DNA of 63,781 bases, the filler included, from Stramenopiles sp. TOSAG23-6 (Eukaryota), in NCBI GenBank assembly GCA_900128565.1. It is 9 parts of 9 records of this genome, joined end to end, with 100 filler letters (N's around TTAATTAATTAA, not from the genome) between each part and the next. Parts side by side here need not be neighbours in the genome. Positions count along the whole stretch, not along the records: positions 14,305 to 21,307 come from LT636619.1; 8 more parts are not named here. One strand, given 5' to 3'. A program made the translations under genes and the position numbers. Shown piece by piece: positions 852 to 55,580 of this stretch. The notes under the pieces are model-generated. The model did no database searches. It worked only from the letters and a program-made list of their open reading frames with translations, and was not told the DNA's origin. The first letter of the stretch is position 1. Each line of letters starts with the position of its first letter.

Positions 852-886
<35 letters not shown>

Positions 887-5779: not shown

Positions 5780-5886
5780 CTCAAAACATGAAATACACAA
5801 ATGAGTGAGGGAGAACACTTGCGTCTTTTTTTTCGCGCTTGCGGCTTTTGCTTCGCTTCGAAGGAAAATGATTACCTAAAAAAAGA

Positions 5887-6047: not shown

Positions 6048-6977
6048 ATGGCTCGAAGGTCTACCGAAAGTCTAAGGGATGAAATCATGGGACGTGTGTC
6101 GGAACGGGATACACTTGATAATCAAATACAACCAGAATCTGGTGAAAAATACTTGATGGCGATGCTTCGATCTGTCCAAAAGTCTCAAAGAAAACCAAAA
6201 ATGATTCATAAAGAAATAGACCTGAAAGGACCTAAACTTCATATGACCCAGAGAATGTGGATAAAGGCACATCACGCCATGCATGATGAACTCATTATGA
6301 ATGCGAAATCTTATGTGTCTCATGAAGTGCGAGAACATGAAAAAGTCGTAAAACGAAGTCGCGCTTTGCATTCCAATGATTTGTATAAAGAAATTAAGGG
6401 AAGAGCTCAGAGAAAAATTTTAAATCAAGGAAACAAGGAACTTCTTCATCTTCTTCATCGTGTTGGCGAGAGAAAAGATCAATATCATGGCTCTAAAAAT
6501 AATAGTTGGGACCAATTACGTAAACGACGAGCGAAGGCATACGTTTTTATCATGAATTTTAATTTTTTTTTTTTATACGAAATTTTGTACCTAAGAAAAA
6601 AAAAAAAAAAAAAACTAATTTTTTTTTCAATTTTTTTTCATAGTACATTTTGTATCTAACGATTTTATTTTTTTTTTAATTTCACACTTTCACACTATAC
6701 GACTACATTAGCAAAAGTCTCCGCAAAAAGAATGTATGTTTTATATGAATTTCTAATTTTTTTTTTTTTTTTTTTAAATTTTTTTTATACGAAATTTCGT
6801 ACCTAACAAATTTTTTAGAATTTTTTTTTGAAATATTTTTTCACAATACATTCTTGATGGTAAAAAACGTCAAGCTAATCAAGAAGTACTTGAAAGACTA
6901 GTTAATACAACATCTGCATTTAATCGGCGCAAATGGGAATATGATTATCAGAAACATCAGGAACGTGTTGCTTTGAT
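6048..6977 (+). CDS. CFAP97/Hemingway-like ciliary protein, 3' partial; exons 6048-6538, 6701-6733, 6852-6977
   Basis: Spliced frame gives NKELLHLLHRV and ANQEVLERLVNTTSAFNRRKWEYDYQKH. Confidence 0.55.
6539..6700 (+). mobile_element. Introner intron AT..AC with double core
   Basis: ATACGTTTT donor variant, two branch-like cores; removal restores frame. Confidence 0.6.
6734..6851 (+). mobile_element. Introner intron GT..AT, preceded by AT
   Basis: Consensus match; removal restores frame (AGA ATT CTT). Confidence 0.85.
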
Positions 6978-7160: not shown

Positions 7161-7253
7161 GTATGTTTTATTTTTTTTCAAATTCGAATTTTGTTTTCGT
7201 ACGAAATTTTGTACCTAACGATTTTTTTTTTGAAATATTTTTTCATAATCCAT
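7161..7253 (+). mobile_element. Introner intron GT..AT, preceded by AT
   Basis: Consensus match, ends AATCCAT. Confidence 0.75.
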
Positions 7254-8416
7254 ATCGACGAATATCGATTGATGCTGTAGAAAAAAAATGGACAAAAATA
7301 TATAAGACATCTTTAAAACAATGTATGCATGGTATATCATGTAAACATGGTGGTCCTCCTCATTGTACTATAGGTCATCGACTTCAAAAGATTCCTATTA
7401 TTACTGGAAGTGTGACTTCTATTTGGGGAACACTTGAGCGAGCAGTCGCTGGTTTACCAAAGAAGGACTCTTCATTACGCGTAGTTCGTGTTCAAATAAA
7501 TGAAAAACAAAATACTAGAAAAAAAATTATTGGTGTTCGATTTCCTTTTCATAGATTAAAAACTCTTAGTCAAATTCTTAGTATGAATAGAAGTCGTAGA
7601 CATGGTCGAAAAGAAATTGTTGCACTTCAAACAAATTTTGGTCTAAATAATGTTTGTTTTATTTTTTTTCAAATTCGAATTTTTTTTCGTACGAAATGTT
7701 ATACCTAACGATTTTTTTTCAAATATTTTTCGAAAATACATGTAGTAGAATCTTTCAAATTGGCAAGGAAAACTGATTATGTAGTATTTGAGAAGGAAAA
7801 CAAAACCTTTGAAATACCAGCTAATTCTATTATCATTGATGTTCATGGTGTTAGTACACAATTTTCAACACCCCAACAAATATTGAATTTAATTAAAGAA
7901 CGTGGTAAAACTCGTGAAAGTATTCGATTATGCATCATTAAACCAAATTCTATTGAATTGGGAAATAAATTAGAAGAAATTACTGCAATAGACAAAAATG
8001 CAAAGAAACGGGCTTTTAATACTGTACAAAAAAAAATGACTTCATTTTTTAAGACTGGTGTTTCTAGTTCATCTATATTTACAAAAGATTTTGCAACGAA
8101 ACCTTCGAAAAAAAAAATATCAAAGAGAAAAGCCGCTCAAATGGTCAAAGCATCGTCTCAAGGGAAAACGTCGATATTTACCAAACGATCGAGACCAAAG
8201 ATTCAGTCTGCAACGTCGATCTTTGCTAAACAAACAAGAACAAAAAGGAAATCACCTGCAGCAAAGACAGTTTCAAGTGGTAAAAATGAAGTGATTGAAA
8301 TCAGTGATAGTGACGATAGTGAATATATGCCTGAATTTTGTGGAATTGATGCGAGATTTACGGAAGAAGTTTCAACAAGAAAAACTAGAAAAAAACGTAA
8401 AACTTCAACAAAGTAG
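7254..8416 (+). CDS. SBNO: Strawberry notch (SBNO/FORGETTER-like) C-terminal part, 5' partial; intron 7652-7741
   Basis: WTKIYKTSLKQCMHG..CKH..CTIGHR..ITGSVTSIWGTLE..LRVVRV..IIGVRF matches the SBNO C-terminus. Confidence 0.75.
7652..7741 (+). mobile_element. Introner intron GT..AT, preceded by AT
   Basis: Joins ORFs 7163 and 7760 in frame. Confidence 0.85.
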
Positions 8417-10518: not shown

Positions 10519-12837
10519 ATGTACTTTAATATGCTGAAGCAAATTGCAGTATACTTTAATGTTTTACATGTTATGATCAGAGTAAATTCATTGAAGAGTA
10601 ATGTATCAGGAGATATTCCAGATACTTTATTACTCGAACAAGAAGCTGCGTTGCAGTTTCATAGATGGTGGGACAGTCCGTCCAAAAAATCACAAACAGA
10701 ATCACTAGGACTTAGTCTGCCCTCACTAGAAATGAATCCCATTTTTGCACCTCATTTATTGAATGAAAATCTTGAGTTATCTCCACATAAGAAGGATAAG
10801 AAGAGTGAAATTGGAAAGTCATCCTTTTTAGAATTTAGGGAAAACTTGCTCAAATTTAAACACGAATATAACGGGGATCCTCCCGTGCCAAGAAATCGAG
10901 AAAGTTATCTAAATTTACCTCATTTCACTTTACCACCCCCTTATTTTTTATCTTTTCTTGAAACAAATACAAATTTGGTCAAACAAGGTAACAAACCTTC
11001 TTGGTGGAACGACGTACGTTTTCAGTATGAATTTCAAATTTATTTTTTTTTTCGTACGAAATCTTGTACCTAACAAATTTCGAATTTATTTTTTTTTACA
11101 ATACATGTTCGCCCTCCAATCACTAAAGCAAGCAAACAACAGCGACAAAAGCAACAAAAAATTAAGAATGAGACAATAAATACAAAAACTAATTCTCATT
11201 CACGCGATTTCTTACAGTCAGAATATGTACCGGATGTATTTAAAGAATCTCTTCAACCAACGAGATTTCGTTTTAACGGAAACGAAATGGTTCTTGAAAA
11301 TGTAAATCTATCAAAAATATCCGATCAATACCGATTTCGTGGAGGTAACAGGGTACAATTATCTGATAATGATCCTAAGCCTTACACTCCACTGTGGGCA
11401 AAACGAGGATTGATTAACAGAGAACGACCTCCAAGTATAAATGATGGAACACTTAAACAAAAAACTTGGAAAACATTAGTAGATAATTCCCAAAGAACAA
11501 ATAGGATTGAAAAAAGTAGTAGTCAACACTTTTTACAAGCTCTTCTTCCCGATTCTGTTAGACTTGAAGGTGATCCTTTTGCAGTTGAAGGTGGTGCGCA
11601 GGGATTTCTTGAAACGCAGTCCACTACTGAAGCTCAATCCAAGGTAAGTAATCAACTACATACCAAGGTTAAATCATCGACAAACCTGTTTCTGAGGAGT
11701 AAACAAGCAAGTCAAAATAAACTCAAGGAACGTAATAAAAATATGGGATTTGGTCATGTATTTCACTTTCCAAATCATCGGCGCATGGTCGATGGTACGA
11801 ATCAAGGTAAAATGTTCCAACAACAAATAGGAAATGAAAATAAAAAAGTATCACAACAAATCATGAATGAACATTTGGGTCGAGGACAGATTTTCAATTC
11901 AAATAGCAATCAACGAGCTTTAAGTCGGTATGCATATGATGGAAATATTATTAAAAATCCATCTAAAATGTATGAAAATGCTCAATTTGGTGGCAACCCT
12001 ATTATAAATGGAATGTATGGATTAGATAAAATGCCAGACACTCGATTTGGAACAGATAAATCCAAGGTTACTATAGGCGCTGCTGAAATTATGCCAGAAC
12101 TTGGAATTGTTGGAAACTTAAATTCTGGAGGTGGTCCATTTGCGGGATCAATGTCTCCACCTTCCGCACCCAAATATAACTATTCGGCATTCAGACATGG
12201 CTCTCAGGAGCAACGTCCAGCACCACCGCCACCTGCATCTCCGATACCCGTTGGTCCTCTTGGTGGAGGTCAATTTCCATCAATTTCGAGTAGTTTGAAT
12301 AGTAGTACATCTCATTCTTCAAACGAGACAGGTCTGGTAAATAGCTATCTTCCAGTAACGAGTACTTCAAATATACATTCAGCGAAATCAAGTAAAAACT
12401 CTACTGGTGAAATGAGTATGCTACTTGAGGTCGGCGAAGGAGCTCAAGCTAGTATGAGCACAAAACAAGCTCTGACTAATGCACTTGCAGTGCGTCAAGA
12501 AGCTGAAGAAAAACAATCATTGCAGATTCTACAAGAGAATGCACTTGCTGCGTCATCAAATACAGGCACAAAACATAAAATACAATCAAGGAATAACATA
12601 TCAATGTCTTTTCAATCAAACAGAGAACTACCATCACTTTTCGATAAAAATTTAGTAAAACCAGAGGAAATCGTAGTACACGATTGGGGTGGCTTTAAAT
12701 TGAACAACCATGAACTTCCTTCAGTGCCATCTTTAGAATTAGGAAGGAAGATGCCGAATCATCCTATTCCTCATATGCATAGTTTACCTCCTCCAATGAG
12801 AGGTGCAGGCCCACCATTGCCTCAAGTACCGGTATAA
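10519..12837 (+). CDS. Hypothetical, possibly secreted low-complexity protein; intron 11014-11106
   Basis: Splicing joins ORF 10519 to ORF 11287 in frame; hydrophobic N-terminus; recurring SFLE-like motifs. Confidence 0.7.
11014..11106 (+). mobile_element. Introner intron GT..AT, preceded by AC
   Basis: Phase-0 join GAC|GTT; open frame to 11287. Confidence 0.85.
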
Positions 12838-12959: not shown

Positions 12960-14150
12960 TTAAGATGCAACAACATCATCCCACTTTTGTGCTTCATCGC
13001 TTTCACACCATACTTTGAAATCTTTCATGTTTATATCTAAATGTCCTATGTATTTTTGAAAAATATTTAAAAAAAAAAAATGTTAGGTACAAAATTTCGT
13101 ACTTAAAAAAAAGAAAAAAAAATGGAAAAAACTAAAACATACATGTTATGAGGATTTCGAATTACGCGTATTGGAGGATTTAATTGTTCTTGCATAAATT
13201 TTTGTGTAAATGTCGCCAACACTGGCATAGGTGAATGAAACATTTTTGCATGTATCATATAATTTTCATCAATTCGATTATGATAAATGTCCCATTCGAT
13301 ACCATTCAAATCATTGGCTCTTTTTGAACCATACCATGAGGCTGGATGTCTAGCCTGACCAGAATGTTTACCTTTACCAACACGAAAATTCACTTGAAAA
13401 TCTATATTATATCCAGTGTTTAAAATTAATTTTCTAAATTTCAATAAACAATCCGAAATTTTCACTATTGCGACACCTCTGGATAATCCACGTAACTGTA
13501 CAATCACAGATGTTGAGATTTTATTTGAATTATTATTATTATATCCATAATTGCAATATTTACGATATATCAATAAAGGTCGAGGATCCTTCAAAACAGT
13601 CCAATTATATTCTACTGTTGGAAGGACTATCGCATCAATTACACAAGAATAATGTTGTCTTGTTAAAATACCCGAATTATTTAGTTTTTCAATAAATACT
13701 ATAGCAGCATTGATACCTTCTGAGCCTTCTCTTGCCATATTCCATATTACTTTCGTCCTATGAGCTGATAGTTCAGTTGTTTTATTTTCTCCAAATTCAT
13801 TTTTGTTTTTCGCAGTTTCTAATTCCATTTTCGATAAATCAAAGTACCTTGTATATCTTGGAGAGATAACACAATTTATGTTATCATGTATTCGGCTTGC
13901 CGCTTTGATATTTCCTTCTAAAATGTATTTGAATGCAACCATCCAAAAAGAATGATGATCTATTTCTGCACCTCGTGCTTCCATCGCAAGTAAGTATTGT
14001 GAAAAAATATGTCAAAATTGAAATTCATTAGGTACAAAATTTTCTATGAAAAAGAAAAAATTGAAATTAAATTGGATAACTTACAAAAAATCCTCACTTT
14101 CTTGACCAGACCAACACGCTTTCAACATTACACCAATATGTTGACAGTTC
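12960..14150 (-). CDS. PPR-like plus SMR domain protein, 5' partial; introns 13048-13142 and 13992-14084
   Basis: VQLRGLSRGVA, RVGKGKHS and spliced NPHNIGHLDI SMR motifs; MLKAC and HYSCVIDA PPR-like helices. Confidence 0.7.
13048..13142 (-). mobile_element. Introner intron GT..AT, preceded by AT
   Basis: Removal restores SMR C-terminal N-I-G-H-L. Confidence 0.85.
13992..14084 (-). mobile_element. Introner intron GTAAGT..TT, preceded by TT
   Basis: Join TTT TT|A CTT GCG ATG is in frame. Confidence 0.8.
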
Positions 14151-14392: not shown

Positions 14393-16283
14393 ATGCCTCT
14401 TTCGAAGAGATAATTTGGAATCAAGATTATCCCTCTCCTGGCTCCAGTTAGGAAGGTCAACTAAATTTTCTTTCTGAAGATCTGTTTTTTTACTTTCAAT
14501 CATTTCGATATCTGACATTTTTTTGTTTTTTTCTTCTTCTGTACGAATCGTGATATGAATTTCAGGTTTTCCTGAGATTGATTTGTACGCTGCTACGGCA
14601 GTTTTTTCAGCCCAACTTTTATCATTATTAGTATTGTCAAATTCTTTATTTTTGTGGTTGTGAGGTTTGTTCATTGATGAACTACTTGGACACGAAATAC
14701 GACTACCATGATTATACAATGTAAATCCATGCTCTCGAACATCAACGCCAGATAATTGAACACAATCTGACACTCGCACACCGTATATTGTGAAAAATAT
14801 TTTTTTGTAAAAATATCGTTAGGTACAAAATTTCGTACTAAAAAATTAAATTTGAAATTAATTGTGAAAACGTACGTATACTTTATCCAATCCAAAGAAT
14901 ACAATAAACGCACAAGTTAGGGTCCAAATAGTAATACAAACAATGCCTAATAACTGTATTAAAAATTGATTACCATTTGCCAAAGAGTTCCCTTCCGGTA
15001 AACTAAGTCCAGCAGCTACTTTTTCATCAGTTGCAAAAATTCCAACAGCAAGACATCCCCAAATACCACAAAATCCATGAACTGAAGAAGCATCTAGAGG
15101 ATCATCAATTTCAAATTTTTCCAAAATCCAAGAAAAAAGTAAAAGAATTAAAGAACCAATAACACCAATACATATAGATGCAGCAGGAGATACAATGCCA
15201 CAAGATGCTGTGATAGAGACTGCTCCTGCAAGTATTGCATTAAGTGACATCTGAATATCATATACATTCCAGAAAAATTTAGTGAAAATAAGTGCTGTGA
15301 AGCAAGCACTAGCAGGAGCAAGAGTCGTATTCACAATCGCCAAAGCTGTTGTGTAAGTTCCGTTGCTCGTAACCCCTGGTCCAGAACTAGCATTAAAACT
15401 AAACCATCCAAACCAAGTATTGTGAAAAATATTTTTTTTTTTCCGTAAAAAAATCATTAGGTACAACATTTTCATGGTAAAAAAATAAATTCAAAATGAA
15501 TGATGAAAACGTACATAGAAGACCAGTACCAAGTGCGGTGAATATAATATTCTGAGGTGGTATTTTGCGACCCTTGGTAGCAAAAATAGGATATTTCTCT
15601 CCCCATCGTCCAGCTAGTTTTCGAGGATGCAACCAATTGTCTTCCGGTAAAAGAGGACCTAACAATCTGCTCATATTTCGTTGATTCGAATATTTCGTAC
15701 TAAAACGGCCCACACGAGGACCTACTAGTGTCGCGCCAACAAGACCACATAGACCTCCGACAGCGTGAACAACCCCACTACCGGCAAAGTCAATAAAACC
15801 ATAATGATCAAAACTTCGAGGCCACCTATCAGCATTTGTACCTGAAAATATTCCGTCACTACTCCATACTTGTCGAACTACTAAAGGGTAAACAAAGCCA
15901 GTTATTACTAAAGTATAGAAAAAGTATGCTGATATCTTTGTGCGTTCTGCGACAGCTCCACTGACAATAGTTGCTGACGTTGCTGCAAAAGTGAAAGAGA
16001 AAAACCAATTTGTTAATTCCGAACCTGACTTCAGATTACGCATCAAAAACGCTCCATTATCTGCATTTGCTATTGCAAAGCCTACCGCAAACCATGTAAG
16101 TGCTCCTAAACAAGTATCCGCGTAGTTTTTAAATATAATGTTGATGGCGGCCTTTTTCTGTACAGCTCCAACTTCAAGGACGAGGAAACCAACTTGCATC
16201 AAAAATACGTGCATTCCACATAGTAACAACCATACATTTTCGGAAGAAGCCACAACGTCAGTAAGGCCCTTAGAATTGGACAT
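14393..16283 (-). CDS. AMT: Ammonium transporter (Amt); introns 15415-15514 and 14783-14875; 3' partial
   Basis: FLMQVGF, TIVSGAVAER, DFAGSGVVH, spliced GLLWFGWFSFN, IDDPLDASSVHG. Confidence 0.95.
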
Positions 16284-16576: not shown

Positions 16577-18776
16577 ATGTCTTATGACCAAGAAGAATAC
16601 GATTATAACAACTATCAATATGATCATAACAGTACATCACAAGAGCAATATGACTATACACAACAGTCCTACTATCAAAATGAATACGACTACAACGAAG
16701 GCTACGACGAACAGAGTGAATACGGAAATTATTACGCAGAAGGAAATTACGAAGAATCACAAGAATACTATTCTCAGGGATATGAAAATTACGAAGAAAA
16801 CACTGAGAATACGATAGATTCTAGTACTGATAACACTACACATGTTGTTGCAGTAGGTAGTCCAGTCAAGGCAATACGCGCAAATAGATTTCGTCTTGCC
16901 TCTGAAACAAGGGGGCGTTTAGAAGAACTTGTAGAGGCTGAGCCTGATAACATTCTCCATCTTGTAAAATTAGCAATAGCTTGTTCTAAATATGGCGATT
17001 CCAAAAATACAGCAAAGCATTTAGAATATGCTTTTTCTTTAGGCCTTACTGAAAGTAAATTAGTTTGCGCTGATATTGACATAAAATTAGCAAAAGTATA
17101 TAAAATATTAGGCGCAGCGCAGTTTCAGCTTTATAAAACAACAGCATATTTGAACCAAGATGTTTTATCTAAATCTTTCGATGCTTATAAATTGGCATTA
17201 AATGATCCAGAATATTCATCTGATCCTCATACGCTGCTTGAAGTATCAAATGTGTATAAATGTTTTGACTCTTATGAGGGAGCTCTTCAATGTCTAGGAG
17301 CAATAGCTAGCTCTACACCAGATTTCAAACACATTGGTACAGTTTTTATTTCAACTGCTGGAATATGGTTGAAAAAACAAAAGTGGAAAGAAACTATGCA
17401 AAGTTTGACAATGGCGAAACAATCAAAACCAAACGGATTTCAAGACTGGCATATGCTATTTCTTTTAGCGAGAGTGAACGAACTAGCAGCGATAAGCAAA
17501 TCTACAGAAAGTAGCTCTGTGGAAAAAAACGGGAAAAGTTCAAAAAATAAAAAAAGTTCCAAAAACAAAAAGCATAAGAAAAAACAAGTCAAAAACAGAT
17601 TCGTTGATCCCTCAAAGGTAAAACTTTATAACGCTGCATTTTTATCATTCAAAAAGGCAAACTCGAAACAGAAAAAAGGATCAGTGCCTATACCAAAAGA
17701 TTTGACTCAATGGCTCCACAATCCTGGCACTTGGACGTCCGTAGCAAAATTATGCGATAAATTTTTCTTTATATTTTGGTCTTTTCATTTATTCTCACAA
17801 GCACTCAATATGGCTGGAAAACAATTTCGAGACTGGTGGCCTCTAGCAAAAGCGTGCTATATTTGCCAACAAAAACAATTTGCCATTCAAGCAGTCCAAA
17901 ATCTGATCACTAGAAAACCAGCTCATTGGTTGCGATGTGTGCTCCATCAATGGAAAGGATTGCCACCTCCCACTCCTCCTTCAAAATCTGTCTCCGAATC
18001 AGAAACTCAAAAAGGGTCATCAAAAAAACTTAATATTAAGGAAAAACAACAAATAGACCGGCAAAAGCAAGCTTTGGAACAAAAAAAACAAAAGGAACAA
18101 GAAGAACAAGCAGCATGCATGTTTTATTTTTTTTCAAATTCGAATTTTTTTTCGTACGAAATTTTTTACCTAACTCTTTTTTTTTTAAATATTTTTCCAA
18201 AATACATTGGCAAAGAAAAAGAAACTTGAAGCCATTGCTGCTGCAACAAAAAAAGCTGCACAGGACGAAGGTGTAACAAAAAACGTTGAGAAATCAAATG
18301 TTAAAATAATGACACCAGAGGAAAAAGACCTTCTAGATCCAAAGTGCCCAGCTGAAACTCAAGTCGAAGAACGCGCTTACTTTCTTAAAAGACGGCGTGA
18401 AATGAGAGCAAAAGAAAAAGCACAATTTTTAGGTGCTCAGAAACTGCAAGCTTTGGTAAGAGGGCGAAAGGGTCGTCGAATAGGTCGTGAAAGATGGAGA
18501 AAACGACGCTGGGAATGTGCTATCATATGTCAAGCACAATATAGAGGAATTCTTGCTCGTAAGCGCGTTAGTAAAATGATAGAAGATTTAGACAATCCTT
18601 ATGCAGAGCTAGAAGATATGGAATCCAAAGTATCACAAAATCACCATACAACTCAATCTTCAAATAATTATCATAATGCCCAATATAATGGACAACACCA
18701 GCAAAATGGATACTGGAATAATGCAGCGACGCAAGCACAAAGCTATCAAATGCCAGCTACTCCACAACATGTGTAG
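16577..18776 (+). CDS. TPR-like plus IQ-motif protein with Tyr/Glu-rich N-terminus; intron 18117-18207; C-terminus cut by inversion junction
   Basis: Helical TPR-like repeats; LQALVRGRKGR and CQAQYRGILAR IQ motifs. Confidence 0.7.
18117..18207 (+). mobile_element. Introner intron GC..AT, preceded by AT
   Basis: Join GCA T|TG GCA links ORFs 16577 and 18207. Confidence 0.85.
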
Positions 18777-19328: not shown

Positions 19329-21219
19329 ATGTCCAATTCTAAGGGCCTTACTGACGTTGTGGCTTCTTCCGAAAATGTATGGTTGTTACTATGTGGAATG
19401 CACGTATTTTTGATGCAAGTTGGTTTCCTCGTCCTTGAAGTTGGAGCTGTACAGAAAAAGGCCGCCATCAACATTATATTTAAAAACTACGCGGATACTT
19501 GTTTAGGAGCACTTACATGGTTTGCGGTAGGCTTTGCAATAGCAAATGCAGATAATGGAGCGTTTTTGATGCGTAATCTGAAGTCAGGTTCGGAATTAAC
19601 AAATTGGTTTTTCTCTTTCACTTTTGCAGCAACGTCAGCAACTATTGTCAGTGGAGCTGTCGCAGAACGCACAAAGATATCAGCATACTTTTTCTATACT
19701 TTAGTAATAACTGGCTTTGTTTACCCTTTAGTAGTTCGACAAGTATGGAGTAGTGACGGAATATTTTCAGGTACAAATGCTGATAGGTGGCCTCGAAGTT
19801 TTGATCATTATGGTTTTATTGACTTTGCCGGTAGTGGGGTTGTTCACGCTGTCGGAGGTCTATGTGGTCTTGTTGGCGCGACACTAGTAGGTCCTCGTGT
19901 GGGCCGTTTTAGTACGAAATATTCGAATCAACGAAATATGAGCAGATTGTTAGGTCCTCTTTTACCGGAAGACAATTGGTTGCATCCTCGAAAACTAGCT
20001 GGACGATGGGGAGAGAAATATCCTATTTTTGCTACCAAGGGTCGCAAAATACCACCTCAGAATATTATATTCACCGCACTTGGTACTGGTCTTCTATGTA
20101 CGTTTTCATCATTCATTTTGAATTTATTTTTTTACCATGAAAATGTTGTACCTAATGATTTTTTTACGGAAAAAAAAAAATATTTTTCACAATACTTGGT
20201 TTGGATGGTTTAGTTTTAATGCTAGTTCTGGACCAGGGGTTACGAGCAACGGAACTTACACAACAGCTTTGGCGATTGTGAATACGACTCTTGCTCCTGC
20301 TAGTGCTTGCTTCACAGCACTTATTTTCACTAAATTTTTCTGGAATGTATATGATATTCAGATGTCACTTAATGCAATACTTGCAGGAGCAGTCTCTATC
20401 ACAGCATCTTGTGGCATTGTATCTCCTGCTGCATCTATATGTATTGGTGTTATTGGTTCTTTAATTCTTTTACTTTTTTCTTGGATTTTGGAAAAATTTG
20501 AAATTGATGATCCTCTAGATGCTTCTTCAGTTCATGGATTTTGTGGTATTTGGGGATGTCTTGCTGTTGGAATTTTTGCAACTGATGAAAAAGTAGCTGC
20601 TGGACTTAGTTTACCGGAAGGGAACTCTTTGGCAAATGGTAATCAATTTTTAATACAGTTATTAGGCATTGTTTGTATTACTATTTGGACCCTAACTTGT
20701 GCGTTTATTGTATTCTTTGGATTGGATAAAGTATACGTACGTTTTCACAATTAATTTCAAATTTAATTTTTTAGTACGAAATTTTGTACCTAACGATATT
20801 TTTACAAAAAAATATTTTTCACAATATACGGTGTGCGAGTGTCAGATTGTGTTCAATTATCTGGCGTTGATGTTCGAGAGCATGGATTTACATTGTATAA
20901 TCATGGTAGTCGTATTTCGTGTCCAAGTAGTTCATCAATGAACAAACCTCACAACCACAAAAATAAAGAATTTGACAATACTAATAATGATAAAAGTTGG
21001 GCTGAAAAAACTGCCGTAGCAGCGTACAAATCAATCTCAGGAAAACCTGAAATTCATATCACGATTCGTACAGAAGAAGAAAAAAACAAAAAAATGTCAG
21101 ATATCGAAATGATTGAAAGTAAAAAAACAGATCTTCAGAAAGAAAATTTAGTTGACCTTCCTAACTGGAGCCAGGAGAGGGATAATCTTGATTCCAAATT
21201 ATCTCTTCGAAAGAGGCAT
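19329..21219 (+). CDS. AMT: Ammonium transporter, mirror copy; introns 20098-20197 and 20737-20829, third intron from 21220
   Basis: Identical reverse complement of 14393-16283. Confidence 0.9.
20098..20197 (+). mobile_element. Introner intron GT..TT, preceded by AT
   Basis: This removal restores the Amt GLLWFGWF motif. Confidence 0.92.
20737..20829 (+). mobile_element. Introner intron GT..AC, preceded by AC
   Basis: Restores DKVY|GVRV (Amt GLRV-like motif). Confidence 0.88.
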
Positions 21220-21618
21220 GTATGTTTAAATTTTTTTTCAAATTCCAATTTATTTTTCGTACGAAATTTTGTACCTAACAAATTTTAGTTTTTTTTTTTG
21301 AAATATTNNNNNNNNNNNNNNNNNNNNNNNNNNNNNNNNNNNNNNNNNNNNTTAATTAATTAANNNNNNNNNNNNNNNNNNNNNNNNNNNNNNNNNNNNN
21401 NNNNNNNAGGCCATGACGTATCCATACCCAATGTTCATACAGTGAAGAAAGATATAATAAAAGTGATTTGGTCTGTTTTATATTTTTCAATAATTCTAAT
21501 TATTAATGACTTGCAAAAGCTTCTTTAACAACTTTTCTTCTTCGAATATCCTTAAGACTTCGTCTCTTTCGTCTCGTCTTCTTCTTTGTACTATCACCGA
21601 TAATAGTACCATCTTCTG

Positions 21619-24600
21619 TCATGACACCACGCATTTTAATAGACTTGGTGGTTTGACATACCCTGGATGTGAGCCTCTAATTTCATAACTCCACATCATT
21701 TCGTTTGTTTCAATAACAAGTTTCCCTACTAAAATCTTGCCATAATCACTTGGAGTAAAGGACACAATGAAATTTGTACCACCAGATCCATATGGCTCAA
21801 GCACACCCTGTAGTGGATACACTTGAAATTCACTTGGTGAATTCGGAGTCATAAATGCTTTAAAGTTTGCTGTTGATTCGTCAATATTTGCAAGATCAAA
21901 CGAAATAGACGATGTTGTATGTAATGATGCTTGAATAGATATTACATCATCAACATCTGGCTCTTGAACATTTAGTATCATCTTATATCTCCATCGCCCA
22001 CCCGATTTTTTTGTAATGACAAATTCTGCAGGTTCATGAAAAGAACGCAATGGTTCAAACTTCATAAGATATTTCAAAGACTCTCCACTTTGAAAGATTT
22101 TATCCTTTAGAGCAGTGATGTGAAGTCCAGCCTTTACAAGAACTCTATTTTCATCACTACATTTCACTTCAAAATCAAATGACTCTGGTTCTGTTATTTC
22201 ATCCAAGCCTGGTAAATTAATAGTAAACTCTTTATTTATAGCATTACGAGCACGACAACGTAGTGTAATCTTTGGAGAGAATGGACAACATTCTGAAATA
22301 CCAATCAGAGGATATATCCATTGAAGTGGTGAACCATCAAAGTTTGTTGGGCCATCAATCACGCTTATTGTGACGGTGGCTCTCAATTCACATATTTTAT
22401 TAGGGGAAAACATATAAGGAATTTGTAAATTACCAAAGGGTGGAATGACACAGCGACTCCTTTTAGCAATTAATTGAAAAGAACCATTTGGTGATGGTTC
22501 AAACATCATATCACTAGCTATTGTTAATTCTTCTGGAAATGGATTTCGAAATACAAAGGAAGTCGATGTTGAATGTTCAGCTATAGCTGTGGTAGTTATT
22601 GGTTCCATCTCCATCGTTGGTGGAAGACCACGTCCACGTACGGTATACACCCATTCACCAACAGTTTTATTTGAAAATGTAACAACTGCATCTTCAATTT
22701 TCTCTGGGTCTAAAGAAGAAGGCGTGTATCGAACCATAACATTTGCAGATCCATATGGTAACAACGTAACAGCTGATGGAACGGTTGAAAAATTTGTCTT
22801 ATTATTTGTCTTTCCTTGTATCGTTAACTCAGCACCAGTTGGGTTTTCTAAATGAACTTGCTGGTCACAGTGTGCACCAACCGCACATTCCATGATTTGT
22901 AAAGGAATAGATTTTGCAGGATCCGCATCAAGTTCTAAGGCATACCAAAACTCACCAAGATCTTCATCAACAAATGTCACTGATCCATGCTGTTGACCAG
23001 CAACTAAGGGTGAGTATATCAACTCATAAGAACCTTCAGAATTTGGAGATAGTTTAAATGAACTATCACCAATTAAACCTTCACCATTTAATACTACTTC
23101 AAACTCTACTTGTTCATCTGTCGGATTTCCAAGTGATATTTCTACTGAAACAGCTTTTCGAACAGTAGCTTTAATATCAACCCTTTGTTCAGGTTCTGGA
23201 AGACTTGCTTGTACTTCAGCAGTGTACCATTGAAAACTACCATCATTGGGGTTTTTAAATGTAAGTGAACCACTGTAGGTACCACTTATTTGTGGATGTA
23301 TTACTAATTCATAATTAGATGATGAATTTGCATTAACTGTAATGGATGAAGGTCCAGATACATGTGATATATCAGATTCGACTGTAAAAGTGACTTTTTC
23401 AGCCGTTCGATTCTGTACAGTAAAAGATTTCTTCAACGTGTCTCTAGCTTGGCAATGTATGATAATATGATCTTCTGAGAGTGGCTCCTCACCAATACCT
23501 TTTAACCGAAATGAGAATTTATCTCCTGTTGGCGGGTTTAGTAATGTCAAGTTAGCATCTTCTTCACAAATCCACGTTGGTGCAAAATGTAATTCATATG
23601 TTGCAGTCGTTTTAGGTAGTACATTTAACGTACCATTGCCTTTAAATGCAGATGACCCTGTAAAAGTAGCTTTAAGAGTCCATTTGGCATCTGTATTATT
23701 TTTTATTGGGATAGATTGAGTTATGACCTTACTTGCAGGAGCAATAAATTCAAGATATTTTTCTACAGCATTTGCAGTGACAGTTACCTTTACTTCATAC
23801 ACTCTAACATCTAAGGGCGAACGTAAAATTATTTTGCAGGGATAAATACCTGGATCTCTAGGACAAAAAACGGTGCTTACTCTAGATACTCCATTTGTTG
23901 GACCGTCAACAGTTGCAAGGGACACTTCTTGTGGTGCAGAAAAAAAGGGTGAATTTATTTCAACATTAAACGGTAAACGAAAATCCCTAATTTGTTTCAA
24001 TCGTCCTCTCATTGCTTTACGAGCTCTTGAAGATAATGCATCTAAATACACATTTTTAGCTTCCTCATACATTCTATTTTCTTGTACAATTTGAATATCT
24101 TTGACCACTTGAGGTTTCATTGGGGTATTAAACTTAATACTATCCAAGCAATTAGGCAAACTAGCTGTACCCAAAATTTCATATACAAATTCACCAATCT
24201 CCTCAGCTAGAAATATAATTTTACATGAATATTCACCAACCATTAAAGGCATAAATGAAACATTTATATCAGAACTTTCGCCTACTTTTAATCGAATATC
24301 TTTTGTATTCAAAACAAAAAAATCCGGATATTTAATTTTCTTCCTTTCTTTTGTTTTTTTGTTTTTTGGACTTTTTGGACTTTTTGGACTTTTAACAGTT
24401 TTGTCGCCAGTGTCAATTCGTTCTTGAATAACTGAAATTTTAAATTTACTCGATTTTGTAAATGGATTTGTCACTGTAACATTAACCTTTTCTACCTCAT
24501 ACGTTGGGCATTTTGCACGAAATGTTAATGTTGGTTTATGACCGGCAGCTCTCGATTCCAAATTAAACACTCTGTATTTTGGAAAAATATTTCAAAATTT

Positions 24601-27600
24601 TTTTTGAAAATTTGTTAGGTACAAAATTTCCTATAAAAAAGGTTTTACCAAAAAAAAAAAAATGAAAAAATAAAACATACAATGTAGCTGCAGAAATTCC
24701 ACCATCCCGCTGACTTTGAAGAATCAATCTAGATTTCGAAGGACGCGAAAATCGAGAGCAAAACTCGACAGGAATTTCAGTTTGTTGTAAAGGTTCCAAA
24801 TGTACATTTTTACTATTTATTCGAAATGAATTTTGGAAAAATATTTCAAAATTTTCTATAAAAAAAAAATTTGTTAGGTACAAAATGTACTATAAAAAAG
24901 GTAAGACAAAAAATTGAAAAAAAAAATTAAACATACATGAATTTGAACCTTCTAAAACAGCTCGATAGTGCATTGACTCTTTGGATGGGTTTCGGAGGAC
25001 AATTTTCTTTGTTGTTGTATTTCCAAGCATACTTTTAAAGTATATTTTTGTTTTAGGTATATAATTAGGAAGCGTATTGTATAAAGACAGTAACAACAGG
25101 AGCATATCCAGTGGACTAGCATTAATTAAACTTTCCCTTGTTGGAATATATTCTAAATTCAGCGTATTTAAACCTATTAAAAAGGAATCCATATTTGTAG
25201 ATTGTTGTTCATAAAAATTTGAAGAAATTTCTTTTTTAGATCTATTAGTAGTAGACATATTGTTATCCGTGGATGATCGTGTCGTTGCTCTATCAGGTTT
25301 AAGGATTAATTCGGACATTGGTCCACCAAAATCACTTGAAAGATGAGGTGCGTGAGATAGTAATAATGAACACAGTAATACACCATCACTCAAATCTTCA
25401 TCAAAGCTAATTAAGCGCCGACGTGGTTGATCTGGATTAAACTTTGCAAAATGAAATTCAACCCACTTACATAATATATTTTCAGACAAGCTATATACAT
25501 TACTCTGTGTCAGTGAAGAATCGATATTTTTCTTTTTCTTTTTTTTACCATTTTTCTTACTATTTTGAAGCATATTGATGGAATTGCTTTTAGATGATTT
25601 AGATGATGTCATCTTTTGTGTTGTGTCGTCCTCTTCGTTAGCAGTGTCACTGACACCCACTACACCAGGTAAGTTCTCGTATTGTTTCAAATGAATTCGT
25701 GATAGCATAAACACCTTGATAATCTGAAGTGAAATAGTTGTCCAAGCTTCGAGAGACTCTTTTTTATATTGTCCATCGATTTTCTTTTTCATTTCAATTG
25801 ATTCTGGCGATGATGTATCAGGAGAAACCTTTTCATTTTCAGCCAATAGATTCATGACATGACGAGTGTATAAGGATTTTGGTAATAACGCTTCAGGCTT
25901 AACAAAGTGTAATAAGGCACCGTACCCTTTCAGCATTGTAAGCAATGCATTATGTATTTTGGAAAAATATTTCAAAAAAATAAAAAAAAATTTGTTAGGT
26001 ACAAAATTTACTATAAAAAAAAAATTCGATTTTTTTTTTTTTCGGTAAATAAAAAAAAAAAAATAAAACATACATACTGTGCTAATAATTTCTCCAAGGC
26101 TTCGCGTTTCCTTTCAATGGTAAAATTTGGTTTCACTTTATTAGTCACATGCTTACCAGATAAAGATTCAACAATGTTTATGACAGGAATGCCATGCTCT
26201 GCAACAATGCCATCTGGAAATTCAGAAATTGATTTTTGAAAAATATTTTGATTCATCCATTTTAACAAAAAAATTGTTCTTTGATTATTCCATTCAGCAT
26301 TTGCTTTCTCTACCAAAACACTATTTTGTTTTTGTAGACTTTTTTGATTTTTTGGACTTTTTTGGATGTTTTGGATCTTTTTGATCTTTTTGATCTTTTT
26401 GATGTTTTGGACTTTTTTGATGTTTTGGACTTTTTTGGTTTTTACTTTTTGTATTTTTCCGTGTCTCCTCCAAACTAGAATTTTGTTGAATAAATTGTAT
26501 TGCGCTAGTTGATGACTGTGCACTAAACATCCATGGCTTGTCAACATTTCCATCATTTCGTGCATTCCTCACAAATTGGTAATTACTGAGAACAGAGTTA
26601 TCTGAAACACCTGAAATATTAATAGAAAACCGGTTTCCTTCAGTATCCAAAAAATCAACTCGCGCAGTGAATGATAGAGATGTTTTTGATGAAAATGTGA
26701 CTTTGACTGGAAATTTTTTCCTTGTTAAACCTACAAGTTTTCCTTCTGGAAAATCTAATTTAATTGGCATTCTTTCATTATCATTTGGTAAATGATATTT
26801 TACATCAAGGTTTTCATATCCAGCATTAAGCACATAAAAGGTTGCTGAAGTTTTCACACCTAATGGTACCGGTGGTAATAACACTTCATCAACATCAAAC
26901 TCCAATCGTGGAAAAATCCCACCACCTCGTATATTCAATTCCAAATATGGTCTATCTTTATTTCCGTCAAGAAACACGGGAACAGTATTTTGACATGAAA
27001 TAGCTCCTTCAGGTAAGAATGTGATTCGAACTTTACTTGTTGAATCAGGTTCTAAGTGACCATTGGCAGGATCGATCGAAAATGGAGATTTTTGAGATGA
27101 ATTTCTTCTACTCATTAATCCACTCAGTATTGGATTAGGACCTTTTAAATTTGTTTGATCCAATTCCCAACTTAATTTACTTTCAGATGCATTTGTTATG
27201 GTAAAATTGAGGTGGTGCGGTACATGTATTTTGGAAAAATATTTCAAAATGTTTTTTGTTAGGTATGAAATTTCATAGTAAAATACAAAAAAAAAAAAAA
27301 ATTCAATTTCAAATTTAAAAAAAAAAAATAAAACATACTTTTTTCATCGGATCTCTAGAGACAACCATCTTTCCAAAATCGACACTAGATGATGACAGAA
27401 CAATACGTGGACTTACCCCAGACGCAACTACAACTCTTCTAAGCGATGCTGCGTCTTTTATTCCTACAAAGGTGAGTGGCAATTCAAAAGAGTGTTTGTT
27501 TTCGTTTTCAGGTTTATATAAGATGTCTAACATTAAAGGCATTCCAGGGCGTACTGTTAGCTTAAATTGTCTTGGTCTATGTGTATCTTCATTATTATCA

Positions 27601-28403
27601 CCACCATTGCTCTCGCCATCCTTCTCGTGAATCGAATCATCAATAGCAGTTAAAACACTCATAGTGGTAGTTGGCCGACCATCAAGACCAAGAGGTGCTG
27701 GTGCTTGCGTAATTGAAAATTCTGGAAATTTAGTCAAATTAATAAGCATTGCCGCTGGAATATTTCCATTATTTAATAATGTTAGTCTTTGTCCAACTGA
27801 AGCCCCGAGGGCTACATCTCCAAAATCAAATTCATCTTCTTGAATTCGTACTTTAGGTACCACTGCATTTGCATTTATACCTAATTTACGGGGAAGTCCA
27901 CATCGTACATTCACTACAATTAATGATGTTTTTGCATCATACACCCTCGGTTTTAATGCTTCCAAGGTAATAGTCAAGTCTTGTGTTCCACCTGGTAATA
28001 ACCGGCCTTTCTCAGGACTACACGAAATCCCAGGAATGACAGAAGATATCCAAAACACAGCTGGAGATTTCCCAATATTTCGCATTGTTATATTTTTTTG
28101 ATGTGTCAAGCCTACTGCAACTTCATCGAAATTTATTGTAGAAACTTTTTGTTTAAATCCGATTCGAGCTTCTTCCAGGACACCTCTACAAAATAAACTT
28201 TGTGATTTGCCACCTGAAATTTTCAATTCAAGAGAATCTTCCGCTTTGCCCTTTAATCGAGGGGTAAAAGTGACCCCGACATCTATGTATTTTGGGAAAA
28301 TATTTCAAAATTTTTTTACAAAAAAAAAATGTTAGGTACAAAATTTCGTACGAAAAAAAAAACTCGAATTTGAAAAAAAAAAAAAACATACATTTCTTCA
28401 AGC
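21619..28403 (-). CDS. CFAP47: Cilia- and flagella-associated protein 47-like, 5' partial; 5 introner introns and one apparent +1 frameshift near 26321
   Basis: Tandem ASH/Ig-like beta domains plus calponin-homology segments (YSLSENILCKW...FDEDLSDGVLLCSLLLSHAP). Confidence 0.85.
24572..24680 (-). mobile_element. Introner intron GT..AG, preceded by TT
   Basis: Join gives AATLVFNL. Confidence 0.9.
24826..24936 (-). mobile_element. Introner intron GT..AT, preceded by AT
   Basis: Join LEGSNSFRIN is in frame. Confidence 0.85.
25952..26073 (-). mobile_element. Introner intron GT..AT, preceded by AT
   Basis: Join LLAQY|NALLTML. Confidence 0.88.
27224..27338 (-). mobile_element. Introner intron GT..AT, preceded by AA
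   Basis: Join DPMKK|VPHHLNF. Confidence 0.85.
28285..28391 (-). mobile_element. Introner intron GT..AT, preceded by AT
   Basis: Join LEEIDVGVTFTP. Confidence 0.8.
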
Positions 28404-31101: not shown

Positions 31102-34100
31102 ATGACGCAGGTGAGTCACTCAAGTCGCTTTACAAATAAAGAATGGAAACTCCACTTAAAGTTCCAAGAAGCTGCTTCAAGAAATCAAACTGAACTACTT
31201 GAACATGTTTTGATACCAACGCGTGAACGTATGCCCCAAGTGTCCGTTTTATTTCATTTTATCTTATCCATCATATCAATGCTGCAATATTTTCTGATAA
31301 GATTATTTTTTAACTATTTTGTAATTTACATATTTTTCACATTCTATACGTTTGAAACTTGGGCTAACGCATAATGTATCTCGTGACAGTAGCCAATGTA
31401 TAGATGCTTTATATATTGCAGAACAGCTTTTACGTACTGCTCACCAACTTGTCCTGGAGTATCCACCACCATTGAGTCGAATGCAATTTCAGATACGACA
31501 TCGGCGATTAACCCGTATTTTGTATTTCCAAGCAATACACTACATTCCCATTTCCTTTTAAGGCTTTTAAGTCGTTTTAAGTATCATTTATTTATCATTA
31601 TTCCAATTATCGCATTTGAATTATTCATTGATTTTTTGTTTGACATATTTTTCGCGGTATAAGTATTAGTGAATCCGCTGCCGAGGCCGTGTTTAATCTA
31701 TTAATAGAATATGTAGAAGATGATGAAAGACTTAAGCCAATGAGTACAATTTCAATGATTGGATACGATTTGATACGAGCTGCACAGCGAGGTGATATTG
31801 TGACGGTTCAAGATTTACTCCAGAAAAACCCTAACCCTAATAATAATGTATGTTTTCAATTTCGAATTTCGATGTTTTTTTTGGGTTTCGTACGAAACTT
31901 TGTACCAAACAATTTTTTTTTTTTAATATTTTCCAAAAATACAGAATGATCACCTACCGATACATAAATGGTTAAACTATCGCGGAAAAGATGGTGATGG
32001 TTTAACGCCACTCGTTGAAGCTGTGTATGTTTTATATGAATTTCTAATTTAATGTTTTTTTCATACGAAATTTCGTACCTAACGATTTTTTTTTTGAAAT
32101 ATTTTTTTACAATACGTGCTCGGAGGTTATATAGATATTGTAGAGGCACTACTATCAGCTGGTGCTGATTTAGATGCTGTTAAAGGAGGTATATTAAAGA
32201 GGGAAGTGCTCGGAGAAGGAGTCCAAACTAACATAGATGTACACGTATGTTTTATTTTTTTTTTTACTATGAATTTTTTTTTATAGTAAATTTTGTACCT
32301 AACATATTTAAGGTGTTTTTTTTGAAATATTTTTCCAAAATACACTATACGATTGAAGATATTTGTCAGTCAACGAATAATAAAAACATGTTATGCCTGA
32401 TTCAAAAATATCGAAAGACAAGTAAAAATGAAAAATCATCTGTAAAAGAATTACCTCATGTACAATCTGATTTCCGACGTTCAGCATTTCAGAAATTAAA
32501 ACCATTTGAACCGAATATGAAAGATATTCTTGGAGAACTTGAGTTTGAGAAAGAATTAGCGAAAGCTAACATGAATAAGTTTATGCATTTGGAGGAAATA
32601 TTACAAGAAGAAGTTAATACTCTCCAAAATTCATTGAATAATTCGAAAGTTGAAATTTCCAAATATGTAGAAATGCATAAAGTTGCATCCGATAATACGT
32701 CCAAAGTCAAAACGAAGGCAAAAAAAGATATAGAGTCATTACAAATGAAACACGACAATCTCGTTGCGCTCCAGCATGTAAACGAAACGAAGCACTCCAC
32801 AGAAATGTATGTTTTATTTTTTTTCAAATTCGATTTTTTTTTCGTACGAAATGTTGTACCTAACAAATGTAGGGTTTTTTTTTTTCAAATATTTTTCCAA
32901 AATACATGGGTATTTATGCCGATTTAGTAGAGGAACATAATGTAGCACAAACGAGAATAAATGAATATGAGTTAAACGCTGTAGAGCATATATCGCAAAT
33001 TCAAGAATTGTCAAAGCAATTTGAAGAATACAAAGTAAAGAAAACAAATGAAACTACAATGTATGTTTTATTTATTTTTTTTAAATTTGAAATTGAGTTT
33101 TTTTTTCGTACGAAATTTTGTACCTAACGATTTTTTTAGATTTTTTTGAAATATTTTTCCAAAATACATGATTCCCAATGATACAGAAAAAAAGGATTCA
33201 AAAGATATAGCTTTGGAATCTGCAAAACAGCAAACGTATGCTCTACAAATTCAGCTTCAAGAAGGCAAAAAGATGCACATGTCTTCAGAAATTATGCTTG
33301 ATAATGCTCAAAATGAAATAAAGGCTCTTCGAAAGGATCATGTGATAAAATGCAGAACATTTCAAGACAAGATTGGAACCAAAAACCAAATGTACGAAGA
33401 TTTATTACAAAAGCATCATTCAATTGAACATACAATTAACAAAGGAAATATTTCTGTAAACGACGAAACAAGAGACCAAAAGCTGAAGAAAGATGAACAA
33501 ACGTATTTAGAACAATCTCAAATTTTGAGAGAAAAAATTAAAAGTTTAGAACAGAATCATGAAGATAATATTTTGAAAGCTCATAATGACAGTGCACTTG
33601 AGGTAACCTCAATTGCCGAAGCTGCAAAGATTCAGGAAAAATCTATGGAAGCTTTAATTGAAAAATTGAAAAAACAAAATAATTATGTTCCAAATGTTTC
33701 TGGGATGGATTCACGGATGATGAGGATGAAATCAGCTTATAATAATGAGGTATCTATCGCTTTGAAACACTCAAATGAAGTCAAGGAAGCCAAAGATATG
33801 GTCAATAAAATGACTTTCGAAAGTGAGAAAACCAATTTTGAAATTGAAACTTTACAGGCTCAGAACATACAGCATACAAAGCATATTGAACACATCACAA
33901 GTAAACATGCAATACAGTATAAAGATCTACAACAAGAGCTTCATACGGCCAAAACAAAACTCGCGGAAGCAAAACAAGCTAGTGTTGTATATTTAGAAAA
34001 AAAAATCACTAAATAAAGTAAATGAAAAAAGTAAACAAATAAAAGTTAACGAGTTACTAGAGATTCAACTTGCTGAGCACGCGAGTATGATAAATCATTT

Positions 34101-55488: not shown

Positions 55489-55580
55489 GTATGTTTTATA
55501 TGAATTTCTAATTTAATTTTTTTTCATACGAAATTTCGTACCTAACGATTATTTTTTTGAAATATTTTTTCACAACTCAT
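55489..55580 (+). mobile_element. Introner copy GT..AT whose flanking exons are out of phase
   Basis: Consensus match; donor is phase 1, acceptor is phase 2. Confidence 0.7.

Follow-up and report, generated by a model that had tools for sequence, protein, structure and literature searches.

How can an intron be cut precisely from a conserved gene when it contains no AG dinucleotide at which to end? This question is raised by an Amt gene in a stretch of DNA of 63,781 nucleotides (nt), hereafter the window, from Stramenopiles sp. TOSAG23-6 (GenBank assembly GCA_900128565.1). The first Amt intron, at positions 20098-20197, interrupts the signature motif GLLWFGWF, and a preliminary description of the locus had proposed that this motif can be restored only with a non-AG acceptor. 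We consider it probable that the element is a real intron and that the Amt gene carrying it is functional. The element would belong to a high-copy, transposon-derived ("introner-like") family in an uncultured MAST-3 stramenopile, and its splicing is predicted to proceed with a relaxed choice of 3' site.

The first exon ends at 20097 with ...GGT ACT GGT CTT CTA T, in phase 1. The intron reads GTACGTTTTC...TTGTACCTAAT...ATATTTTTCACAATACTT, with a 3' portion of CACAATACTT, and the sequence from 20198 onward is GG TTT GGA TGG TTT. Removal of positions 20098-20197 joins CTA T to GG TTT GGA TGG and yields G-L-L-W-F-G-W-F, and the boundary can slide by -1 or +1 without any change in the mRNA. As previously described, the split codon is T|GG, the intron ends AATACTT, and the next AG lies beyond WFGWF; each of these points proved exact when the sequence was read again. 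The reported lack of an AG between the branch motif and the junction extends to the entire 100-nt intron, in which the AG count is 0. Use of the AG at 20211-20212 would give T+TT and then a TAA stop, and retention of the intron leads to a stop after 38 codons. With an AG-free intron and a frame that is lost at the first AG beyond it, the conserved LWFGWF helix can be kept only by a non-AG acceptor.

Homology places the junction at the same position. The Pfam profile PF00909 aligns with exon 1 over profile positions 1-191 (E 5.3e-44) and with exon 2 over positions 202-375 (E 3.9e-40), and its W-x-G-W-x-G-F-N block is recovered only with a non-AG junction. An alignment of the protein with its homologues had been suggested as a check. 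When the protein was spliced in silico and aligned with 18 homologues hand-picked from 148 proteins, the block ALGTGLLW|FGWFSFNASSG had no gaps; at the junction residue, 14 homologues have W and the other four have F. The protein also carries DFAGSGVVH and SVHGFCG. Thus, the AG-free intron, the frame break, and the gapless junction all support the proposal that the signature motif needs a non-AG acceptor. Left out of the preliminary description were two further observations, namely that intron 1 belongs to a repeated, transposon-like family, and that Amt intron 2 likewise lacks a terminal AG. The junction of intron 2, GLDKVY|GVRVS, is gapless against the same 18 homologues, and a TATAC/TATAC repeat over its boundary allows seven equivalent registers, none of which ends in AG.

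A different version of this protein is present in public collections. Exon 1 matched 2,476 proteins at E <= 0.001 among 5,989 candidates of 449-2000 residues. The best match, P0001, has 94% identity over 88% coverage, and the next match has 44% identity. The source name of P0001, GSMAST32.ASY1.ANO1.920.1, points to the MAST-3 stramenopile single-cell co-assemblies of PMC5778133. P0001 reads ...PEDNCWTMGREISYFCYQGFNASSG... and ...KVYVLSDCVQ..., and relative to the homologues it has a frame-shifted stretch in which LWFGW/WFGWF and GVRV are lost. It drops two more conserved pieces, where it reads VWS|TNADRW and GLS|IVCITIW. P0001 is a gene model with forced GT-AG introns, and this forcing makes the public Amt model wrong in at least four places.

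Could the public model nevertheless be right, with cryptic canonical GT-AG sites being spliced and the Amt protein made without WFGWF? P0001 is built in exactly this way, and GT and AG sites with an open frame do exist at the locus. We give this possibility very little weight, because a conserved transmembrane block present in 18/18 aligned homologues is lost or shifted out of frame in the model, and because the two further conserved pieces are removed as well. In addition, P0001 is the product of an aligner plus ab initio pipeline. Gene prediction behind the MAST-3 assemblies, whose N50 is 6-7 kb, used BLAT/Genewise, est2genome, SNAP, and GAZE (PMC5778133), tools that presumably assume canonical splice sites.

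Shorter database proteins record the gene in another state. Exon 2 matched 28 proteins among 362 candidates of 98-314 residues, and the only close match, P0121 (99% identity), starts MIFLRKKKNIFHNTWFGWF and ends KVYVRFHN, as expected of an open reading frame (ORF) that runs through both intron ends. Exon 1 matched 13 proteins at E <= 1e-40 among 3,106 candidates of 140-448 residues. These include P0149, in which exon 1 is read into the intron and the intron translation is identical to that of the window. Both P0121 and P0149 are unspliced ORFs from a 2,203-bp environmental contig sequence. This environmental relative differs by four amino acids in the exons and keeps both Amt introns.

The Amt introns share their plan with many other elements in the window: a GTAYGTTT start, a branch-like box of the form TTGTACCTAAC, a UUUYCAMAAUAC box, and then two more nucleotides. 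Matches to TTGTACCTAA with at most one mismatch number 53, against a shuffle mean of 5.65 and a maximum of 11 in 100 shuffles. GTAYGTTT occurs 35 times (6.02 expected, maximum 12), and TTTTCACAATA occurs 17 times with at most one mismatch (6.85 expected). An alignment of 25 copies gave the consensus GTATGTTTTA-T(n)-...-CGTACGAAATTTTGTACCTAAC-...-T(n)-TGAAATATTTTTCCAAAATAC-AT, and the Amt introns fall into a second subtype, GTACGTTTTCATCATGAATTTC...AAAAAAATATTTTTCACAATAC-NN. Pairwise identity among copies averages 0.60 (range 0.36-0.92), and a hidden Markov model of the family alignment, used with nhmmer, finds 49 matches in the window at E <= 0.01.

A curated census, with one copy kept for each exact duplicate, comprises 29 complete unique copies of 90-152 nt, apart from one composite of 334 nt. 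Their 5' hexamers are GTATGT (18), GTACGT (6), GCATGT (2), and GTTTGT, GTACAT, and GTAAGT (1 each); by position, counts among 28 copies are G 28, T 26, A 27, Y 27, G 27, and T 28. The distance from the branch-like A to the intron 3' end is 33-48 nt (28 copies). The branch motif is CCTAAT in Amt intron 1 and CCTAAC in the consensus, with T runs downstream, and this box probably works as the branch site. G+C content is 18.5% in the introns and 34.4% in the flanking exon sequence (100 nt per side). Complete and truncated copies reside in unrelated genes, among them Amt, BBS9, a WD40 gene, a CFAP-like gene, and unknown genes, with up to seven in one gene. When compared with canonical U2-type introns, the family has the 5' GT, the branch motif, and the U-rich tract, and it lacks the terminal AG. 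One additional composite copy, at 6540-6701, may be an intron with an A start; it begins ATACGT, with A for G at intron position 1, and ends near ...CACTATAC; its flanking frames suit an end one nucleotide short of that expected from the conserved box.

To locate the 3' ends, a single rule was set from the conserved box and not from reading frames, whereby each intron ends 2 nt past ...AAUAC or its aligned equivalent. Copies were called informative when at least 20 open codons were present on both sides. This is true for 27 of the 29; for the remaining two, the upstream exon falls within a gap of the assembly. The rule joins the longest flanking ORFs in frame for 25 of the 27 informative copies (binomial P = 1.9e-10 against a chance of 1/3). 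The resulting 3' dinucleotides are AT 20, TT 4, AC 2, AG 2, and GT 1, such that 27 of 29 copies end in something other than AG. Among 28 copies, the final three intron bases are C in 25, A in 23, and T in 24, or CAU| in the RNA.

Scanning for AG performs poorly by comparison. Among 24 copies, the first AG past the branch box falls at the rule position in two, provides an open in-frame alternative in one, and breaks the frame in 19; in the other two, AG is absent up to 40 nt beyond the intron end. AG scanning is thus not the 3' cue, as it accounts for 3/24 copies, compared with 25/27 for the box + 2 rule. This difference also argues against the cryptic GT-AG sites of the public model.

Protein domains provide a check on the rule that is separate from frame alone. 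In BBS9, positions 1-24 of the PTHB1_hp profile correspond to residues 72-95 of the last 100 encoded by the upstream exon, and position 31 is where the match to the downstream exon begins. When the intron at 47876-47973 is removed, five residues and the split codon lie between positions 24 and 31, which is exact continuity. In the WD40 gene (53125 onward), cutting the introns that begin at 54164, 54403, 54650, and 54898 (ending TT, AT, AT, and TT) by the rule creates regular WD repeats. Two of these junctions, WNLVSGDL|IKTIRGH and WNATSGGCLHTLAS|H, fall inside the 15-residue W...GH spacer and preserve its length, as judged from the uninterrupted spacers WNVEDGVCIKTLRGH and WNAKTGLLLRTLMGH. Internal repeat spacing was used for this purpose because a search of the PDB with the WD40 gene returned generic WD repeats only, which are unusable for residue-level mapping of junctions. 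The same gene shows a frame shift at an A8 run (55286-55293) between good WD repeats (...DINDVKK / IGHSDSILCF...). Both this shift and the early end of the copy at 55489-55580 may reflect homopolymer assembly error or a real deviation.

Taken to the scale of the genome, these patterns lead to a bolder proposal, toward which the evidence tilts slightly. Essentially all detectable introns would derive from one mobile family, and the spliceosome would have been re-specified to a "GT-AT" class that cuts 2 nt past UUUYCAMAAUAC, at CAU| in place of YAG|, with a canonical 5' site and branch box and with no hairpin to join the ends. Stramenopiles would have no earlier example of this kind, and published gene sets would be corrupted as a result.

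Several features point to a mobile origin of the family. The dinucleotide flanking each copy on its 5' side equals the last two intron nucleotides in 19 of 29 copies, compared with a permutation mean of 11.3 (P = 3e-5). Because AT is common on both sides, copies with a flank other than AT constitute the sharper test, and here six of 14 match (AC, AC, GT, TT, TT, TT) when 0.97 are expected (P = 1e-5). All six are direct and not inverted repeats. Such matches are the trace that a 2-nt target-site duplication would leave. Nesting of copies also occurs, as seen in the antisense fragment at 56050-56118 within the 334-nt composite and in the double copy at 54898-55049, and a degenerate copy (49930-50002) sits apart from all long ORFs. 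Family copies make up about 5% of window bases. An exact 20-mer of the family was found once among genome contigs, in a Bacteroidales metagenome-assembled genome; this match was discarded, since about one chance match was estimated in 596 Gb.

The structure of the assembly is also marked by the family. The window is a chain of scaffolds of about 7.0 kb in order of falling length (7046, 7003, 6996, 6991, 6982, 6981, and 6965 nt), joined by 100-nt N linkers with a central TTAATTAATTAA (7059-7158, 14205-14304, 21308-21407, 28404-28503, 35495-35594, 42577-42676, 49658-49757, and 56723-56822). Adjacent segments are therefore not physically linked. Scaffolds end within a family copy in eight of 16 cases, or six of 14 when identical palindromic ends are counted once, and such breaks are the expected effect of a high-copy repeat on short-read assembly.

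Two of the scaffolds are palindromic at their ends, with arms that show 100% complementarity (14205-16848 with 18764-21407, and 28404-30208 with 33790-35594). Because of these arms, the Amt gene is present twice, head to head. Inverted chimeras arise in whole-genome amplification of single cells, and the palindromic scaffolds look more like such chimeras than like real duplication.

Some copies contain recurrent short palindromes (e.g., 7190-7215 and 32836-32860), namely AAATTCGAATTT and TTTCGTACGAAA. The latter lies directly 5' of the branch box and has variants, TACGAAATTTCGTA for example, that form perfect palindromes. None of these palindromes emerged as conserved pairs in the RNAalifold prediction, and a role at the DNA level, for example in transposase binding, is possible.

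The element brings its own yeast-like GTAYGT 5' site, a CTAAC-type branch box, a U-rich tract, and the ...UUUYCAMAAUAC box, and is flanked by 2-nt direct repeats, mostly AT, that resemble a target-site duplication. On the interpretation that we favor, the spliceosome restores the mRNA by cutting just ahead of GTAYGT and again 2 nt beyond the AAUAC box, which would remove the element and one copy of the repeat. Because one repeat copy would leave with the element, the 3' end would be whatever target had been duplicated, which is CAU| in most cases and CUU| in Amt intron 1, and not YAG|. A U2-type spliceosome would read the 5' site and branch box normally, and either the conserved 3' box or the distance would fix where its second step takes place, with U (or C) tolerated in place of G. 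Insertion into AT, TT, AC, or similar targets would then be harmless. The copies at 31848 and 24680 end in AG even though their upstream flanks are not AG, which hints that AG is still favored at exactly those two positions. The anatomy of the elements, their repetition, and the restoration of frame and homology are evident in the DNA itself; what we infer from them is that a U2-type spliceosome takes the elements out of the RNA, with a 3' site set by box or position and not by AG.

An alternative is that both cuts are made 2 nt upstream, such that the introns begin with NN+GTAYGT and end in AAUAC. Most would then run from AT to AC, forming an AT-AC-like class. This register would produce the same mRNA wherever the flanking repeats are identical. 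AT directly precedes GTAYGT in 15 of 29 copies, the final base of the box is C in 25 of 28, and in Amt intron 1 the shift would merely exchange CTA for CTT, both of which encode Leu. A first A paired with a last C is a compatible combination of intron ends. We regard this alternative as unlikely because the 5' box is a textbook GTAYGT and not the U12-type ATATCC, the branch box is too far from the end, and the flank is something other than AT in 14 of 29 copies. Moreover, the AG of the copies at 31848 and 24680 occupies the last two positions of the register that begins with GT, as would fit pressure at those positions. U12-type introns have the 5' consensus [AG]TATCCTT and a branch box, TCCTTAAC, located 10-20 nt from the end. 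A U12-type identity for the family was rejected, given its GTAYGTTT 5' box and a branch box 33-48 nt from the end.

The resemblance of these elements to mobile DNA raises a simpler concern, which is that they might be dead miniature inverted-repeat transposable elements (MITEs) in genes, Amt included, that have become pseudogenes. For one MAST-3 assembly, the dynein heavy-chain genes are reported to show "advanced pseudogenization" (PMC5778133); we speculate that unrecognized family introns could mimic such decay. Against dead MITEs, each exon piece is open and conserved, the gene-internal copies are all in the sense orientation, and the copies are carried by unrelated genes, up to seven in each. 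A retained Amt intron 1 would also stop translation early, whereas removal of copies restores the frame in 25 of 27 cases. Pseudogenes seem a poor explanation for this combination, and we assign it only a marginal chance. The earlier argument that the Amt insertion is not dead is strengthened by this restoration of frames, by Pfam continuity in BBS9, and by WD40 spacing at four junctions.

Removal might instead occur in the DNA, as for the internal eliminated sequences (IESs) of ciliates, or through a nonspliceosomal RNA pathway that pairs intron ends, of the type seen in euglenids, diplonemids, and Amoebophrya. The short direct repeats at the boundaries do resemble IES pointers and the repeats at Amoebophrya introners. 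Either route is hard to credit for elements whose 5' site and branch box are of the classical spliceosomal type. For end pairing in particular, RNAalifold found no conserved pairs among 19 copies (energy 0), and a hairpin-type noncanonical intron was rejected on this basis. Ciliate-type IESs have TA at both boundaries and are excised from DNA. In the family, the boundaries are AT|GT...AT|, and TA...TA is impossible at the Amt junction; this candidate was likewise rejected. Nuclear dimorphism is not known to occur among stramenopiles.

Some observations weigh against splicing with a relaxed 3' site, or against the mobile origin of the family. The 3' ends were placed on the conserved box by eye, ahead of the frame test. 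The rule fails in two of the 27 informative copies, which are 55489-55580 and the composite at 55810-56143. An in-frame AG lies 6 nt further on in BBS9, making that junction supportive and not exclusive, and the exact register is not fixable where the flanking 2-nt repeats are identical. The spliced form of Amt was not found in the protein set at the lengths searched (98-2000 residues). Terminal inverted repeats, judged by eye, are weak and amount to GTAT...ATAC plus scattered matches, and no transposase domain was detected among the window ORFs scanned. Nor is a 3' site that ends in U known to function with the standard spliceosome.

The terminal AG is among the most constant signals of eukaryotic gene expression, and few lineages are known to escape it en masse: Fritillaria, Amoebophrya, euglenids, and some diplonemids. 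The present family is an unusually clean case, since only the last base or two deviates from an otherwise canonical set of 5' site and branch box, and this isolates the question of how 3' sites are chosen. It also shows what a transposon needs to turn into an intron where the host does not insist on AG. For the MAST-3 assemblies, which are reported to hold few predicted genes (3,289 and 2,694 in about 19-21 Mb; PMC5778133), functional inferences from the proteomes may need re-annotation. If the bolder, genome-wide proposal is true, single-cell gene sets have been corrupted, and possibly some claims of pseudogenization have been affected too.

Other genes in the window include two related to splicing, an SF3a/PRP21-like gene (Surp, PRP21_like_P; 3707-5818, minus strand) and an Isy1-like fragment (48651-48998, minus strand). 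Rfam at gathering thresholds gave no matches in the window and no small nuclear RNA. A ciliary gene at 21619-28304 (minus strand) encodes CFAP47, CH, and HYDIN/CFAP65-type Ig/ASH domains and is split by at least five family introns. The C terminus of adenylosuccinate lyase is encoded at 63384-63781 (minus strand), where the preceding family intron is truncated at the window boundary. Paralogous proteins with a U-box plus Sel1 repeats are encoded at 181-1782 (minus strand) and 50306-51415 (plus strand). Finally, an ORF of 2,034 codons at 57028-63132 (plus strand) has a G+C content of 46%, compared with about 32% elsewhere. Its product is rich in S (22%), G (21%), and T (10%), is built from units of about 95-100 residues (...GGSISxxVGxGxxxxGGRITISAG...SGYG...SSGxFSIKTANAG...), and has a weak Pfam match only; it could represent a giant protein of surface or adhesin-like type. 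Positions for the Amt gene and the family members are collected in Table 1.

Table 1. Parts of the Amt gene and members of the intron family, in window coordinates
Feature	Position	Strand	Sequence or 3' end	Basis or remark
Amt exon 1	19329..20097	+	ATG to phase-1 end ...CTA T	PF00909 profile and sequence
Amt intron 1	20098..20197	+	GTACGT...CACAATAC+TT	100 nt, AG-free
5' splice-site box	20098..20105	+	GTACGTTT	GTAYGTTT excess in window
Branch-point-like box of intron 1	20146..20156	+	TTGTACCTAAT	family consensus TTGTACCTAAC
Conserved 3' box of intron 1	20180..20195	+	ATATTTTTCACAATAC	intron end 2 nt beyond; alignments, position counts
Amt exon 2	20198..20736	+	GG TTT GGA TGG ... GTA TAC	PF00909
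Amt intron 2	20737..20829	+	GTACGT...AATATAC	93 nt; in frame
Amt exon 3 (C-terminal tail)	20830..21219	+		open frame
Amt intron 3	21220..21307	+		same intron family; cut off by scaffold end
Exact second copy of Amt intron 1	15415..15514	-		in palindromic arm of same scaffold
Member	6734..6851	+	ends AT	
Member	7161..7253	+	ends AT	upstream exon in gap, frame-uninformative
Member	7652..7741	+	GTTTGT start, ends AT	
Member	11014..11106	+	ends AT	
Member	13048..13142	-	ends AT	
Member	13992..14084	-	GTAAGT start, flank/end TT/TT	
Member	18117..18207	+	GCATGT start, ends AT	
Member	24572..24680	-	ends AG	canonical
Member	24826..24936	-	ends AT	
Member	25952..26073	-	ends AT	
Member	27224..27338	-	ends AT	
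Member	28285..28391	-	ends AT	upstream exon in gap
Member	31848..31944	+	ends AG	canonical
Member	32025..32117	+	flank/end GT/GT	
Member	32245..32345	+	flank/end AC/AC	
Member	32807..32907	+	ends AT	
Member	33061..33169	+	ends AT	
Diverged member	35682..35773	+	ends AT	
Member	37002..37099	-	ends AT	
Member in BBS9/PTHB1	47876..47973	+	GTACAT start, ends AT	Pfam PTHB1_hp continuity
Degenerate copy	49930..50002	+		outside long ORFs; upstream of gene at 50306
Member, WD40 gene	54164..54258	+	flank/end TT/TT	15-residue W-to-GH spacing kept
Member, WD40 gene	54403..54509	+	ends AT	
Member, WD40 gene	54650..54776	+	ends AT	
Composite member	54898..55049	+	GCATGT start, flank/end TT/TT	two branch boxes
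Member, exception	55489..55580	+		frame needs end 1 nt earlier
Composite of nested copies	55810..56143	+		334 nt; antisense fragment 56050-56118; fails frame rule
Member	56293..56393	+	ends AT	

How does this family compare with intron systems that are already known? A literature search returned no report of introners in MAST-3 or of noncanonical introns in marine stramenopiles. The words "splice" and "canonical" are absent from the text and the three supplement files of PMC5778133 that were searched, and "intron" is absent from two other MAST papers. The main texts of two introner surveys name no stramenopile or MAST lineage; their supplementary species tables lie outside this search and may bear on novelty. 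According to these surveys, many introner families lack inverted repeats, and one survey discarded mainly noncanonical families that had no RNA support.

The closest published mechanism that we found is that of a Chrysochromulina introner. That element carries its own 5' site and obtains its 3' site, a canonical AG, from a 4-bp duplication. The two systems share a repeated family in unrelated genes, a 5' site supplied by the element, a 3' end in the duplicated target, removal of the element with one repeat copy, and the lack of clear terminal inverted repeats. In contrast to the 4-bp repeat and AG of Chrysochromulina, the repeat in the MAST-3 family is 2 nt, and AT, TT, AC, or GT ends 27 of 29 copies.

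Amoebophrya, also a marine protist, has transposon-like introns with direct repeats at their boundaries, has escaped GT-AG on a genomic scale, and defeats standard gene prediction (PMC7789003). Its elements form hairpins from inverted repeats of 8-20 nt, have direct repeats of 3-5 nt, and have no fixed end dinucleotide. The MAST-3 family differs in that it deviates only at the 3' end, has a canonical 5' site and branch box, and yielded no conserved pairing. Protist introns without GT-AG are likewise known from euglenids and hemistasiid diplonemids (PMC12621601, PMC12501133), but extensive base pairing joins the ends of those introns (PMC12621601), whereas none was found in 19 copies here. Similarity to U12-type AT-AC introns arises only through the alternative register, which reads AT...AC in most copies; the family differs from them in having GTAYGT instead of ATATCC and a branch box 33-48 nt from the end.

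In Fritillaria borealis, most introns break the GT/AG rule and the U2-type machinery is retained, as we suppose it is here (PMC13326754). Fritillaria belongs to an animal lineage, and both of its intron ends are noncanonical (AG...AN, or "AG-A(N)" as quoted in PMC7789003), whereas the MAST-3 family keeps GT. Noncanonical 3' ends in Fritillaria are recognized by divergent U2AF paralogues that arose as duplicated subunits (PMC13326754). By analogy, these proteins could serve as a model for the reading of a non-AG 3' end in MAST-3, where a similar change is predicted. The genome-scale escapes from GT-AG described above involve noncanonical 5' ends, end pairing, or both. The family described here, with its predicted splicing at non-AG ends, is well supported in silico and appears to be a new form of such systems.

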